Assembly (NCBI GenBank): GCA_000004985.1
Contig: GG739003.1
Strand: one strand, 5' to 3'
Length of the DNA: 12,219 nucleotides
From: Naegleria gruberi
Lineage: Eukaryota
Below the pieces are notes generated by a model. The model was not told where the DNA came from, searched no databases, and saw only the letters and a program-made list of their open reading frames with translations. The translations under genes and the position numbers were made by a program. This document shows, in pieces, positions 8,212 to 12,174 of this stretch (positions within the stretch are counted from its first letter, which is position 1; every line of letters starts with the position of its first letter).

Positions 8212-8285
8212 TATTCGTAATTTTTGGAGTAATTATTGGAAGAGCACTGAAGAAAGTTTCAGATGTGAGCATTTGGAAAAGTCAG
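8212..8285 (+). CDS. 7TM receptor-like protein, exon 2 (phase 1 in, phase 0 out): completes TM5 (…LL|VFVIFGVIIGRALKKVSDVSIWKSQ)
   Basis: Intron 8169-8211 (43 nt, gtaagtt…gaatag). The exon reads through in frame without stops and restores a hydrophobic helix. It is followed by the donor cag|gtatgtt at 8286. Confidence 0.55.
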
Positions 8286-8333
8286 GTATGTTTCTTCATT
8301 AACCTTTTCTAAATTATATTCGAAATCTTTCAG

Positions 8334-8639
8334 TTTGCCAAATATCTTGTATTTATCACTCTAGTTTACATTGCTTTCTGCATTTCTATTGCCCTAAGTC
8401 TTGGCATTTCCAATGAAAGTGCTCTGAAACAAACCCTCGACATATTATCAAGCTTAATTCTCCTTCTCGTTACAGCCAGTTTACTCAACATTGAATTCGA
8501 AATGGATGAATTGAAATCTTGCTATTCCTGTTGTTTCAAATCCAAACAAAATTTTTCCTCCAATCATTCACCACTTCTTCTTCATCATCATCCAGAACAA
8601 TCGAGCACTAATTACTATTCTGAAGTTATTGGAAATTGA
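8334..8639 (+). CDS. 7TM receptor-like protein, exon 3: TM6 (FAKYLVFITLVYIAFCISIALSLGI), TM7 (LDILSSLILLLVTASLLNI), cytoplasmic tail with CYSCC cluster and HHH; stop TGA 8637-8639
   Basis: Intron 8286-8333 (48 nt, gtatgtt…aatctttcag). The exon reads in frame from the TTTCAG acceptor to TGA. Confidence 0.6.
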   Translation, partial: FAKYLVFITLVYIAFCISIALSLGISNESALKQTLDILSSLILLLVTASLLNIEFEMDELKSCYSCCFKSKQNFSSNHSPLLLHHHPEQSSTNYYSEVIGN

Positions 8640-8682
8640 AACAATGAGCCAAACAGCAGTAGTGGTGGAAATGAAATCTCTA

Positions 8683-8803
8683 CTCGTACGTTTTAATTTT
8701 CCTCAGCACATCCAAGCTGCGTGCGCACCAATTTTCCTCTTGATTTTCATTCAAATTCGAAAAATAGACCTCTCCATCAAATAATTTCAAAAAAAAACAA
8801 AAC
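8683..8803 (-). repeat. Copy B of the repeated intergenic element (inverted relative to copy A at 1-113), between 7TM gene stop and SDR gene start
   Basis: The reverse complement of 8683-8735 matches 61-113 at 52 of 53 positions. The reverse complement of 8776-8803 (gttttgtttttttttgaaattatttgatg) matches 1-26. The core contains the palindromes GTGCGCAC (8721-8728) and CGTACG (8685-8690). Confidence 0.8.
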
Positions 8804-8855
8804 AACAACATCGCTCTCATAGCTAATCATCTGTACAAATTTATCAAGAAACAAA

Positions 8856-9713
8856 ATGGCCACTAAACAAGCATTGTGTGTTGGAGGTACATCAGGTATC
8901 GGAAGAGCATTGGCAATTAAATTCGCCTCTCAAAAATTCAATGTTTCAATCATGGGAAGAAGTGAAGAAGCAGGAAAGGAAATTATTGAAGAAATGAAAA
9001 AATTGAATCCAGATGGAAAATTTGAAATGATTAAAGTGGATGCCTCTCTCATGAAGGATATTGAAAAAGTGTGTGATGAATATAAACAAAATCATGATCG
9101 ATTGGATTATTGTGTTCTTTCACAGGGAATTGCAAGTATGAATGGAAGAACAGAAACAAAGGAAGGAATTGATGTAAAATTGGCACTTCATTATTATGGA
9201 AGAGTTATGTTTGTGAGACAATTGCAAGATTTATTGAGATTGACATCAAAGAATTCAGATGTGAGAGTCTTGACTGTTTTATCAGCTGGTGTTCATTCAC
9301 CTTACACTAAATTGGATGATTTGGATTTGAAACACAATTTTACATTGAAGAATGCAGCAGATGCAGCTGGATTTTACAATGATCTCGCCATGGATCAATT
9401 ATCCAAAGAAGAAGGCAATCAAAATATTGCATTCATTCATCAAGCTCCTGGATTCATTGCCACACAATGGGGACGTGAAATGCCAGCTGTCGTGAGATGG
9501 ACCACACGTTTCTTCCAAAACTTTGCCAGATCTCCAGAACAATGTGCCGACAATATTTACAAGGGATTAAGTTCAGAATCGACACGAAAGGGTTTCCATT
9601 TATTGGATGAACATGGAGAGCCAACAAAAGTGACAAAGAGTCATAGCGATAGTATCAGAGAAACAGTTTGGAAACACACTGTGGAATTGTTAAATAAGGC
9701 CCTTGGAAAATAA
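8856..9713 (+). CDS. Short-chain dehydrogenase/reductase (SDR) family Rossmann-fold protein, single exon; atypical (no canonical YxxxK)
   Basis: N-terminal VGGTSGIGRALA (TGxxxGxG dinucleotide-binding motif) with an IMGRS Arg after strand 2 (NADP-type). IHQAPGFIAT is a PG motif. The NNAG motif is replaced by LSQGIAS, and there is no Tyr-x3-Lys at the expected position. ATG at 8856, stop TAA at 9711-9713, AATAAA at 9741-9746. Confidence 0.7.
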   Translation: MATKQALCVGGTSGIGRALAIKFASQKFNVSIMGRSEEAGKEIIEEMKKLNPDGKFEMIKVDASLMKDIEKVCDEYKQNHDRLDYCVLSQGIASMNGRTETKEGIDVKLALHYYGRVMFVRQLQDLLRLTSKNSDVRVLTVLSAGVHSPYTKLDDLDLKHNFTLKNAADAAGFYNDLAMDQLSKEEGNQNIAFIHQAPGFIATQWGREMPAVVRWTTRFFQNFARSPEQCADNIYKGLSSESTRKGFHLLDEHGEPTKVTKSHSDSIRETVWKHTVELLNKALGK

Positions 9714-9944
9714 TCATTTAAAAACTAATAATTTGTAAATAATAAACTAAAACTAAATTAATTTCCTAATTTCATTTGGATAGCTCTTCAAATTTTTATG
9801 GTATTAATGCCACAAAGCAAAACTGAGCCATATACGACTTGAATCCAAACAGATTAAATGAATTTTACAGTTATTCGAATCTAATTATATTAATAGTTGT
9901 GAAAGATCAAAGTTCATTATCGTTGTAAAAAAAACAAGAAAAAA

Positions 9945-10937
9945 ATGCTTCCAATTCAACTCTTCGGACCCACGTGCGTTTTTGTTTCATCAAATGATGA
10001 AATTTTTATCGCTGATTGCAATAATCATCGAATTAGAAAATTAAATAATCAGAAAATCATGACAGTAGCAGGGAATGGTGAATTGGGGTTTTCGAGTGAT
10101 GGTGAATTGGCAATTAATGCTAAATTAAATTATCCGAATGGTGTGTTTGTTGTAAAGGAGGAAGTATATATTGCAGATTATCATAATCATCGAATTAGAA
10201 AGGTTTCGAATAATGCATAATTGAAACGATTGCTGGAAATGGAGAAGGTGGATTTGAAGGAGATAATGGTCCAGCTAAATTATCCAACGAGTGTGTTTGT
10301 TTCAGAAAATGGAGAAGTTTATATTTCGGATTATCTGAATAATCGAGTTAGAAAGGTTTTACAAAACGGAAATATTGTAACAATAGCAGGAAATGGAAAA
10401 TTAGGATGTTCAGGAGATGGTGGTTTGGCAATTAATGCCGAGCTCAACTGTCCAATGAATGTATTTGTATTCAACGAAGAGGTATATATTACGGATTCAG
10501 CAAATCATCGTATTAGAAAGGTTTCGAAAAGTGGAATAATTGAAACGATAGCTGGAAATGGAAACGAAGGATTCAGTGGAGATGACGGATTGGCCACTCA
10601 GGCTCAACTCAATTGTCCAATGAGCACATTTGTAAACTCTAATGGAGAAATTTATATTACAGATTCTAATAATTTTAGAATTAGAAAGGTTCAAAGAAAT
10701 GGAATAATTAAAACAATAGCAGGAAATGGAAATGATGGATTTGAAGGAGATGGTAGCTCAGCAACAAATGCCCAACTCAATTATCCAATGCATGTTTTTG
10801 TTTCTTCCAACGATGAAATGTATATATCCGATAGTGGCAATAATGCCATTCGAAAGGTATCAAGGAATGGAATTATTGAAACAGTAGCAGGAGAAGGGCC
10901 TTATTCACAAGGATACAGTGGCGATGTTTCGTTTTGA
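9945..10937 (+). CDS. Bacterial-type NHL-repeat beta-propeller protein: six tandem 54-56-aa repeats (consensus …TIAGNGxxGFSGDGGLAxxAQLNxPxxVFVxxxGEIYIxDxxNHRIRKVxxNGII…); frame disrupted at ~10215-10285 (possible pseudogene or assembly error)
   Basis: ATG at 9945 (AAAAAAATG context), stop TGA at 10935-10937. Repeat period is 162-168 nt, judged from the recurring attagaaagg landmark at 10032, 10194, ~10347, 10512, 10680 and ~10848. There is a single in-frame TAA at 10218-10220. The conserved peptide IIETIAGNGEGGFEGDNGPA is encoded in the +2 frame between 10217 and ~10276, and reading then returns to the original frame. Confidence 0.6.
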
Positions 10938-11092: not shown

Positions 11093-11110
11093 ATGAAAGA
11101 CATTACTATG
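11093..11110 (+). CDS. Hypothetical 6-codon first exon (MKDITM) of the TM2-domain gene, donor atg|gtacgtttc at 11111; would splice in phase 0 to acceptor at 11328/11329
   Basis: ATG at 11093 in a CAAAAAAAAAATG context. GTACGT follows the 6th codon. There is no AG dinucleotide anywhere between 11113 and 11238. The phase is compatible with the exon starting at 11329. This is pure inference from splice-site logic. Confidence 0.25.
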
Positions 11111-11133
11111 GTACGTTTCGCGAATTTGATTTT

Positions 11134-11328: not shown

Positions 11329-12174
11329 GCGTATGTGCTGTGGGCACTTTGTTTCTTTGGTTTATTTGGTATTCATCGATTTTATTTGAATTCGTGGACG
11401 ATGGGTATTGTTTACTTGTTCACATTTGGATTGTGTGGAGTGGGACAGATATTTGACGTTTTGTTGATTCCTGGATTGGTTGCCCAGGAGAATGGAACTA
11501 GCTCAAATAATAATGGATTAGTGTTTGGTTTTGGAAATAATATGTTTTCTGGTGGCAATTATGTTAACTTTAATAATGCTCAGCCTTATCAAGTCTCGAA
11601 TGGAAATGCTGGCTATTCTCAATATTATGTGAATGATGGACAACAGCAACCTCAATCATATGTTCCACCTCAACAACAAGAGCAACAAGAGGGTGGTGAA
11701 TCGAATGAATATGTACCACCTCAGCGAAATTCTGGATTTACAATGTACATTAATGGTCAACCTGTTGATTTGTCTAATGGAGGAACAATTTATATGGATG
11801 GCTCAGGAGAAGCTCAATACTACGCCAATGATGATGATAACGATGATCAGCATTTCAATAGTGTTTTTGATAACATGAGAAGAGCTGAGGAGAATAGAAG
11901 ATTACATGATAGCATCCGTAGAACGAACGAATCAATTAACAGAAGTAACGAAATACATAGAGAAAATATTAGACGAATGAATGAAAATATCCATAGAACC
12001 AATGAGCAAAATCGCAGAACCAACGAGAATAACATGAGAATGCATCATCAAAACATGAACAGAATGCACGACAATATGAGAATGCATCAAAATATTCATA
12101 GCCAGAACATGCAAAGAATGCATCAACAAAATACTATGAATAATATCAATAGAATGAATACTTTCAGAAGATAA
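11329..12174 (+). CDS. TM2-domain protein exon: two TM helices flanking HRFYL motif (AYVLWALCFFGLFGIHRFYLNSWTMGIVYLFTFGLCGVGQIFDVLL), followed by ~230-aa N/Q-rich then R/N/M/H-rich repetitive tail; stop TAA 12172-12174
   Basis: G-x-HRFYL-G between two hydrophobic helices matches the TM2 domain signature (Pfam TM2, conserved DRF/HRF motif). An in-frame TAG at 11326-11328 immediately precedes the exon and coincides with an …aaaatag acceptor. The ORF-track 'M' at 11335 is actually GTG. The tail contains quasi-periodic N-x-x-R-x-x-[EN] and MRMH/NRMH units. Confidence 0.65.
   Translation, partial: AYVLWALCFFGLFGIHRFYLNSWTMGIVYLFTFGLCGVGQIFDVLLIPGLVAQENGTSSNNNGLVFGFGNNMFSGGNYVNFNNAQPYQVSNGNAGYSQYYVNDGQQQPQSYVPPQQQEQQEGGESNEYVPPQRNSGFTMYINGQPVDLSNGGTIYMDGSGEAQYYANDDDNDDQHFNSVFDNMRRAEENRRLHDSIRRTNESINRSNEIHRENIRRMNENIHRTNEQNRRTNENNMRMHHQNMNRMHDNMRMHQNIHSQNMQRMHQQNTMNNINRMNTFRR

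Follow-up and report, generated by a model that had tools for sequence, protein, structure and literature searches.

The window analysed here is an entire 12,219-bp scaffold of Naegleria gruberi NEG-M (Heterolobosea), with a GC content of about 34%, two runs of N and tightly spaced, mostly uninterrupted open reading frames (ORFs). The gene under study, which encodes NHL-type repeats, lies on the + strand towards the end of the scaffold and runs from an ATG at 9945 to a TGA at 10935–10937. It is the deposited gene NAEGRDRAFT_76490, modelled as a 223-residue protein (EFC35853.1), and it follows a gene for an SDR protein (8856–9713) whose product matches EFC35852.1 exactly. The original prediction, made from the letters of the window, had described a bacterial-style propeller gene in a metazoan-type locus. 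The second half of this description is wrong: the locus belongs to a heterolobosean and not to an animal, and the seeming contradiction between a bacterial gene and an animal locus therefore vanishes.

The same pair of genes is present on another NEG-M scaffold, of 304,373 bp, where the SDR protein EFC39023.1 (99% identical to EFC35852.1) adjoins the NHL protein EFC39022.1 (NAEGRDRAFT_73266, hereafter P0003), the presumed allelic product of the window gene. The window and the corresponding part of the 304-kb scaffold diverge by about 1–2%. As Naegleria has been described as a heterozygous diploid (PMC9928731), this divergence is most simply explained by two haplotypes and, judging from the sequences compared, the window appears to be the second-haplotype copy of the region.

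The NHL region of the window is not a single open frame. The ORF listing splits it into 9945–10220 (91 residues, with a TAA at 10218–10220) and 10221–10937, while three-frame translation shows the homologous peptide IIETIAGNGEGGFEGDNGPA continuing in a different frame at about 10216–10275. Our intact reference was an environmental contig of 1,537 nucleotides from an N. gruberi-like strain (L001; ENA sample ERZ929261), about 98% identical to the window in DNA, both flanks included, which carries an uninterrupted, intron-free version of 335 codons (protein P0124). Alignment with this contig reveals two lesions in the window copy, of 1 and 14 nucleotides, amounting to a net loss of 15 nucleotides, i.e. 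five codons. The features of the gene and of its 5' flank are the following.

9714–9944, no strand: AT-rich intergenic region between the SDR and NHL genes (stop codons in every frame upon three-frame translation; alignment with L008, another contig of the environmental sample that gave L001)
9945–10217, + strand: 5' part of the coding sequence, codons 1–91, ending at the premature stop and comprising blades 1 and 2 and the beginning of unit 2 (ORF listing; L001 alignment)
10044–10205, + strand: repeat unit 1, 54 codons (RK[VL] motif, unit alignment)
10206–10358, + strand: repeat unit 2, 56 codons when intact, 15 nucleotides shorter in the window, holding both lesions (L001 and unit alignment)
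10215–10220, + strand: lesion 1, a 1-nucleotide deletion with a G>C change at about 10215, intact AATGGAATAATT becoming AAT-GCATAATT in the window (L001 alignment)
10216–10275, + strand: frame-shifted segment encoding IIETIAGNGEGGFEGDNGPA in the +1-shifted frame (three-frame translation; DNA 100% identical to L001)
10275–10276, + strand: lesion 2, junction of a 14-nucleotide deletion, with loss of AATTAATGCCAAAT (L001 alignment; repeat spacing)
10266–10937, + strand: 3' coding part, back in the original frame, with the rest of blade 3, blades 4–6, the C-terminal tail and the TGA, corresponding to EFC35853.1 (deposited sequence; ORF listing)
10359–10523, + strand: repeat unit 3, 55 codons (unit alignment, repeat search)
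10524–10691, + strand: repeat unit 4, 56 codons (unit alignment, repeat search)
10692–10859, + strand: repeat unit 5, 56 codons (unit alignment, repeat search)
10860–10934, + strand: C-terminal partial unit SRNGIIETVAGEGPYSQGYSGDVSF, the last strand of blade 6 followed by disorder (AlphaFold2 strand 315–321; pLDDT below 50 at 327–335)

Up to the first lesion, the window coding sequence differs from L001 by P2L, G54E and one synonymous change. Lesion 1 gives rise to the in-frame TAA at 10218–10220, at a site where P0003 and P0124 both read SNNGIIET; P0003 matches the intact reading at the second site as well. Lesion 2 is also apparent from the repeat search, with a spacing of 150–154 nucleotides at this point as compared to 165–168 elsewhere. 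Because the two lesions together remove 15 nucleotides, the original frame is restored, and the deposited 223-residue model starts from an internal ATG at 10266. A frameshift and a premature stop relative to both L001 and P0003 are what is seen in a pseudogene or null allele. The earlier description of an intronless gene thus holds for the intact alleles and fails for the window copy, which is not one open frame.

The window copy would yield either a 91-residue stub or a four-blade fragment initiated at the internal ATG. In the AlphaFold2 model (see below), lesion 1 affects the last of the four strands of blade 2, and with either product the six-bladed ring could not close. The copy would accordingly be a null or decaying allele, unless the lesions stem from errors in a low-coverage assembly.

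As regards the repeats themselves, with unit boundaries set by the RK[VL] motif and unit alignment, the motifs quoted in the original prediction are genuine: six NHL-type units carry TIAGNG, GFSGDGG, AQLN.P, YI[AST]D and NHRIRKV, and the Pfam scores given below lie well past their cut-offs. The repetition is also visible in the DNA, TRF reporting a period of 165 nucleotides (2.9 copies, 71% matches) and the DNA repeat search six copies with 61–80% identity. Among its five full blades, the intact allele shows 56–67% identity in protein and 64–73% in DNA. At sites where two blades share the same residue, the codon is identical in 231 cases out of 344, as against 170 (neighbours' codon usage) to 198 (the gene's own usage) expected from codon bias alone. 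This modest excess is compatible with an old duplication and some homogenisation; the similarity of the repeats at the DNA level is real, and the recent internal amplification that had been read from it is not borne out.

The frame-repaired translation matches the Pfam models TEN_NHL (PF25021; E = 4.1e-34, 118.6 bits for a cut-off of 27.1) and NHL (PF01436; E = 1.6e-31, 107.2 bits for a cut-off of 20, four stretches reported), and a hidden Markov model of the blade finds six units. Apart from NHL-type models, the 335-residue protein has no significant Pfam domain, and an NCBIfam scan gave no family over its cut-off. The AlphaFold2 model of the intact protein, computed from a 32-sequence alignment (a single-sequence run with a pLDDT of 52.6 was discarded), has a pLDDT of 95.3 and a pTM of 0.92. 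It comprises 24 strands arranged as six blades of four, with disorder limited to the last nine residues or so. The intact product is thus predicted to consist solely of six teneurin-type NHL blades of 54–56 residues, each with four strands, closed into a six-bladed beta-propeller, and would possess no signal peptide, membrane segment or second domain. The lack of a signal peptide, already noted from the sequence, follows from the fact that blade 1 already begins with a strand at residues 9–14 in this high-confidence model.

We compared the model with the PDB using Foldseek and, separately, by a sequence-only search. The closest solved structure to the intact protein is the NHL domain of BiTLP, the teneurin-like protein (TLP) of Bacillus inaquosorum (PDB 9IFO and 9PT5), which spans residues 929–1255 (PMC13018210). 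The match to 9IFO has a TM-score of 0.86, a root-mean-square deviation of 2.0 Å and 48% identity, with a sequence E-value of 1.2e-86, and both proteins display the six-bladed teneurin-type fold with the motif AG.G..GFSGDGG.A..A.L..P…D..N.RIR.V. The TEN_NHL score and this similarity of fold identify the Naegleria protein as a teneurin-type NHL domain. By contrast, it is not a teneurin or a TLP, whose superfold is defined by an FN-plug, an NHL domain and a YD-repeat shell in one polypeptide (PMC13018210). Indeed, the NHL domain of BiTLP is one module among more than 2,200 residues that also include the FN-plug, the YD shell and a toxin cargo, whereas all 335 residues of the Naegleria protein belong to the propeller, with neither FN-plug nor YD shell.

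Other NHL proteins are much more distant. After 9IFO, Foldseek ranks plant SOQ1 (26–27% identity), human NHLRC2 (22–23%), metazoan teneurins (23–27%) and TRIM-NHL proteins (21–23%); the sequence-only search gave the same order, with E-values of 1e-86, 1e-26, 1e-21 (teneurin-2), 1e-17 (NHLRC2) and 1e-9 to 1e-13 (TRIM-NHL). SOQ1, NHLRC2 and metazoan teneurins share the six-bladed NHL fold (TM-scores of 0.70–0.88 normalised to the query), but at 22–27% identity and fused to modules, such as a Trx-like domain or a YD shell, that the Naegleria protein does not have; in particular, no Trx-like match was found, which sets it apart from NHLRC2 and SOQ1. The PknD sensor and the "Pizza" propellers, which were designed from it, likewise consist of self-similar, consensus-like blades and are matched at 2.6e-8 and at 1e-15 to 1e-20, respectively. 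Their blades are, however, shorter (about 42 residues) and devoid of the long GFSGDGG loop, and the domains concerned are extracellular or artificial.

TRIM71/LIN-41, TRIM2/3 and Thin belong to the same superfamily of six-bladed propellers, as does the product of a second NHL gene in the window (1823–2530, + strand). These proteins are 21–24% identical to the studied protein, lack the AGNG..GFSGDGG loop and carry HNHRIQ where the studied protein has NHRIRKV. TRIM-NHL proteins moreover contain a RING, a B-box and a coiled coil, none of which was found in the Naegleria protein by the Pfam scan; the studied protein is therefore not of the TRIM-NHL type. With 24% identity between the two, the studied gene is indeed as unlike the other NHL gene of the window as had been stated. 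The second gene, which is unrelated to the first, scores 8.9e-23 with the Pfam NHL model, may have a 5' exon at 730–960 ahead of a run of N, and has cyanobacterial ScyF as its best NCBIfam similarity, under the cut-off. The label TRIM-NHL that it had been given is unverified, since its upstream part, where a RING and B-box region would lie, falls in the gap.

NHL propellers act as binding platforms in teneurins, in TRIM-NHL proteins and in the PknD sensor. By analogy, the intact Naegleria protein is most likely a soluble, non-catalytic binding platform that would present the loops of a propeller face to a partner.

EFC35853.1 has been placed in orthogroup OG0000061 ("Teneurin-2-like, six-bladed beta-propeller") of the Naegleria pangenome (PMC9928731 supplement); the main texts of the literature gave nothing relevant on Naegleria NHL genes. 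This orthogroup comprises three N. gruberi proteins (EFC35853.1, EFC35279.1 and EFC38321.1) and about fifteen from N. lovaniensis, and is absent from N. fowleri (PMC9928731). The sequence that represents it there begins with a signal peptide (MNLKKMKTFLVCCLILIIICTVSS…) and, though cut off, runs to seven or more repeat units (PMC9928731 supplement), in contrast with the studied gene, which encodes exactly six blades without a signal peptide and whose window copy is frame-disrupted. This distribution fits the alternative raised in the original prediction, namely a lineage-specific family. N. lovaniensis is the sister species of N. fowleri, so that the simplest history is one in which the Naegleria ancestor had the family and N. 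fowleri lost it. The family thus appears to predate the split of the Naegleria species, and any transfer would therefore be old.

N. fowleri does have a protein with the same type of repeat, FDP41_002998 (43% identity), which belongs to a different, core orthogroup, OG0000307 ("NHLRC2-like"), that also has three N. gruberi members (PMC9928731). It differs from the N. gruberi protein in having nine blades, with a mean identity of 40% between blades instead of 63.5%, and lies in an unrelated gene neighbourhood. Its gene is adjoined by a second one with roughly five repeat units, as read from the sequence. On N. fowleri contig VFQX01000033.1, the two adjacent teneurin-type NHL genes (521 and 308 residues) lie 78 nucleotides apart at 10001–12571, and these may be one gene split by the annotation.

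The N. fowleri NHL locus shares no other window gene within about 10 kb, its neighbours being unrelated, and neither an NHL gene nor any other window gene was found within 10 kb of the best SDR homologues of N. fowleri and Willaertia magna; the orthology of these SDR loci is uncertain, as the SDR protein has several N. gruberi paralogues. Closer to home, L008 is collinear with window positions 5957–9824 (97.3% identity). Past about 9825 it diverges completely, into a convergent gene for a TLDc-domain protein (L008 3850–4366) instead of the NHL gene, while the NHL-bearing contig L001 begins at window position 9874. The 5' boundary of the NHL gene therefore coincides with a branch point in that assembly, and the junction at about 9825 could reflect either structural variation between N. 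gruberi-like strains or a metagenome chimera.

Taken together, these data lead us to conclude, with good confidence, that NAEGRDRAFT_76490 is a frame-disrupted copy, apparently from the second haplotype, of a gene for a six-bladed NHL propeller. Several points weigh against parts of this conclusion. That the window carries an allele, and not a segmental duplicate of recent date, is a call made from the 1–2% divergence and the published description, not from mapping. The comparison was one of assembled sequences, and the lesions could be errors of a thin Sanger scaffold. The C-terminus of P0003 is odd, so that intactness in NEG-M is covered up to residue 254, the complete 335-residue ORF being documented only in the environmental strain (L001). 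Finally, the proposed binding function is drawn from knowledge of the family. Regarding P0003, its 258-residue model ends in …RIRKVLKVE, where the intact allele has …RIRKVQRNGIIKT….

Among the alternatives, the one that fares best concerns the origin of the gene and not its state: the Naegleria family would stem from a horizontal transfer out of bacteria that preceded the split between N. gruberi and N. lovaniensis, its codon usage having since adapted to the host. Several observations point in this direction. Once alleles and an N. fowleri protein (P0105, rank 105) are set aside, the best 120 matches are bacterial or metagenomic, with 37–51% identity (42–50% for most of them, 45–51% for the best ones outside Naegleria). 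The best single high-scoring segment pair is bacterial (298 bits, 48% identity), whereas FDP41_002998, the best listed match from another Naegleria species, reaches 207 bits (43%) and rank 104 of the 119 matches listed; apart from the alleles, no named eukaryotic protein that was recovered came as close as the bacterial and metagenomic ones. The contrast between 48% identity to the Bacillus NHL domain and 21–27% to SOQ1, NHLRC2, teneurins and TRIM-NHL proteins goes the same way, as do the stand-alone multi-NHL architecture, which is typical of the bacterial matches, the absence of introns and the lack, in both N. fowleri and W. magna, of a syntenic counterpart beside the SDR gene. The propeller may thus rightly be called bacterial-style, as had been proposed, in so far as the term refers to its nearest solved structure and its best matches.

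This ranking is, however, confounded by consensus-likeness, and it is the ranking of best matches that makes up the support for a transfer. The similarity of a match to the query tracks the homogeneity of the match's own blades (Spearman 0.70), so that much of the ranking is a consensus-repeat effect. Single bacterial blades are 62–72% identical to Naegleria blades, as compared to 66–67% among the blades of the Naegleria protein itself, and total-score ranking in the NHL family is dominated by blade number. The matches also give no donor signal, identity being flat at 42–52% across Acidobacteriota, Actinomycetota, Bacteroidota, Verrucomicrobiota, Chloroflexota and others. No match exceeded about 52% among 1.84 billion cluster representatives, of which 106,295 belong to the family at E <= 1e-3 and 32,806 at E <= 1e-30. 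Scanning JGI metagenomes and GTDB species genomes with query-specific peptides yielded matches of 47% at most, with neither a donor nor any intermediate relative among them; Acidobacteriota, Streptomyces, Bacteroidota and others in the GTDB species genomes lie at 42–46%. With N. fowleri P0105 as the query, bacterial-like proteins were retrieved at 31–45% and the best 120 matches contained no N. gruberi protein. A viral donor was rejected, a single giant-virus metagenome-assembled genome having been found, at 34% identity.

The gene does not stand out by its composition either. Its GC content at third codon positions (GC3) is 0.21–0.24, with 0.25–0.35 in neighbouring genes, and its codon preferences correlate with theirs at r = 0.87, within the neighbours' own mutual range; the native codon usage reported earlier is thereby confirmed. 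A foreign composition, which would be expected of a recent transfer only, was not found. The occurrence of two Naegleria orthogroups with the same type of repeat, one of them core to the genus (OG0000307), also speaks against a transfer. The bacterial look of the protein is best explained by its membership of a very large family of consensus-like multi-NHL proteins that is most abundant in bacteria. A blade-level tree, with 56 columns of near-consensus sequence, would not resolve the origin. The data neither demonstrate nor refute a horizontal origin; on the sequences at hand it is possible, and we lean against it without dismissing it.

The blades closest to those of the Naegleria protein (up to 72% identity) are found in protein P0047, encoded by a gene at 810–2474 of a 3,140-nucleotide metagenome contig (L002; JGI 3300002220). 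They share with the Naegleria blades the variant SVFV…NGE[IV]YIAD. The contig has a GC content of 38%, a GC3 of 0.23 and Naegleria-like codon preferences (r = 0.83–0.89), and P0047 starts with a signal peptide and is read on in a different frame past an apparent frameshift. Not all of the metagenome matches are necessarily bacterial.

The next alternative is that both lesions are sequencing or assembly errors of a low-coverage haplotig and that the cell contains intact copies only. It would fit the small size of the scaffold and its two N gaps, the position of the lesions (60 nucleotides apart in a repeat-rich gene, and jointly frame-restoring) and the fact that, the lesions apart, the intervening and surrounding DNA does not differ from the intact allele. 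Yet a clean 14-nucleotide deletion and a deletion combined with a substitution are atypical of Sanger base-calling, which makes an error less likely. The same allele also has two private changes, P2L and G54E, the latter in the conserved GDGG motif. Furthermore, the ratio of non-synonymous to synonymous changes between the window and L001 is 7:2 in the NHL gene, as against 8:8 and 1:5 (9:13 when summed) in two neighbouring genes compared with L008. Taken from the sequences, this ratio is suggestive of relaxed constraint, in numbers too small for significance. We lean towards a genuinely broken allele, assembly error being less likely though not far-fetched.

More doubtful is a scenario that combines both themes, in which the ancestor of Naegleria took the family from bacteria and the family has been in flux ever since, with expansion in N. 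lovaniensis, loss in the pathogen N. fowleri and, in the window, one decaying allele and a possible polymorphism (presence/absence or rearrangement) at the 5' boundary of the gene, at about 9825.

An enzymatic role for the intact protein (as a lactonase, a lyase or a PAL-like six-bladed propeller hydrolase), in place of one in binding, is quite improbable. Many homologues are labelled "sugar lactone lactonase YvrE" by the JGI automatic annotation, and many have precomputed Pfam matches to SGL and Vgb_lyase. In the studied protein, however, none of the SGL, arylesterase and Str_synth models attains E = 0.01, and the score for Vgb_lyase is 15 bits for a cut-off of 50; with SGL absent at E <= 0.01, the protein does not qualify as an SMP-30, gluconolactonase or YvrE lactonase (COG3386). 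Its closest structures are all non-catalytic NHL domains, and the fold match to virginiamycin B lyase comes with 14% identity only.

The stop codon could in principle be bypassed by splicing of a 72-nucleotide interval (10203–10274) that starts with GT, ends with AG and has a length that is a multiple of three, an in-frame protein still being made. This is highly improbable: the "intron" encodes a repeat segment in the other frame and corresponds to ordinary coding sequence in the intact alleles, its removal would excise the fourth strand of blade 2 and the next loop, GTTTCG is a poor fit to a canonical GTAAGT-type donor (a general standard, not one derived from Naegleria introns), and the deposited model does not use it. 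Contamination of the assembly by bacterial DNA, for which bacterial-like best matches alone would plead, is refuted by the Naegleria genes on both flanks in the window scaffold and L001, and has next to no credibility given also the adjacent accessions of EFC39022.1 and EFC39023.1 on the main scaffold, the GC content of 34% and the Naegleria codon usage.

The remainder of the window contains several further features. Right after the run of N that ends at about 3700, an ORF at 3700–4515 (+ strand) encodes a paralogue of NgTet1, the Tet-like 5-methylcytosine dioxygenase of Naegleria (PDB 4LT5 and 5CG8, E of about 1e-26; weak Pfam Tet_JBP match, E = 0.008), the 5' part of which is lost in the gap. 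The 268-residue protein encoded at 4653–5459 (- strand) is extremely acidic and Glu-rich, with internal repeats (84-nucleotide units, 4962–5147), an N-terminal MGSACSS that constitutes an N-myristoylation-type start, and no Pfam match. Two genes without Pfam or NCBIfam match follow, at 5978–6742 (- strand; 254 residues, signal-peptide-like N-terminus) and 7007–8179 (+ strand; 390 residues, hydrophobic membrane-like stretches); both are kept at 97% DNA identity in L008. A dispersed inverted repeat of about 63 nucleotides, 94–95% identical, occurs at 58–120 (the scaffold end) and 8675–8738 (upstream of the SDR gene), and is also present in L008 at 2709–2834. Downstream of the NHL gene, the product of 11335–12174 (+ strand) combines a TM2 domain (Pfam, 1.9e-12) with a long tail rich in Asn, Gln and Met. 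Ahead of this ORF, at about 11094–11115, an ATG precedes GTACGT, which suggests a short first exon and an intron, in which case the start may precede 11335.

In conclusion, the gene is an ordinary Naegleria NHL-propeller gene whose window copy is frame-disrupted. EFC35853.1 and its allele EFC39022.1 had both been deposited before, the gene is catalogued in a published orthogroup table, and its fold and family are standard. Its orthogroup is one of the 92 that are missing from the pathogenic N. fowleri and present in its harmless relatives (PMC9928731). For the annotation of N. gruberi, our analysis brings a correction, in that the deposited 223- and 258-residue models are both truncated forms of a 335-residue six-bladed propeller. 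For consensus-like repeat proteins such as this one, best-match identity is unsafe evidence of horizontal transfer.

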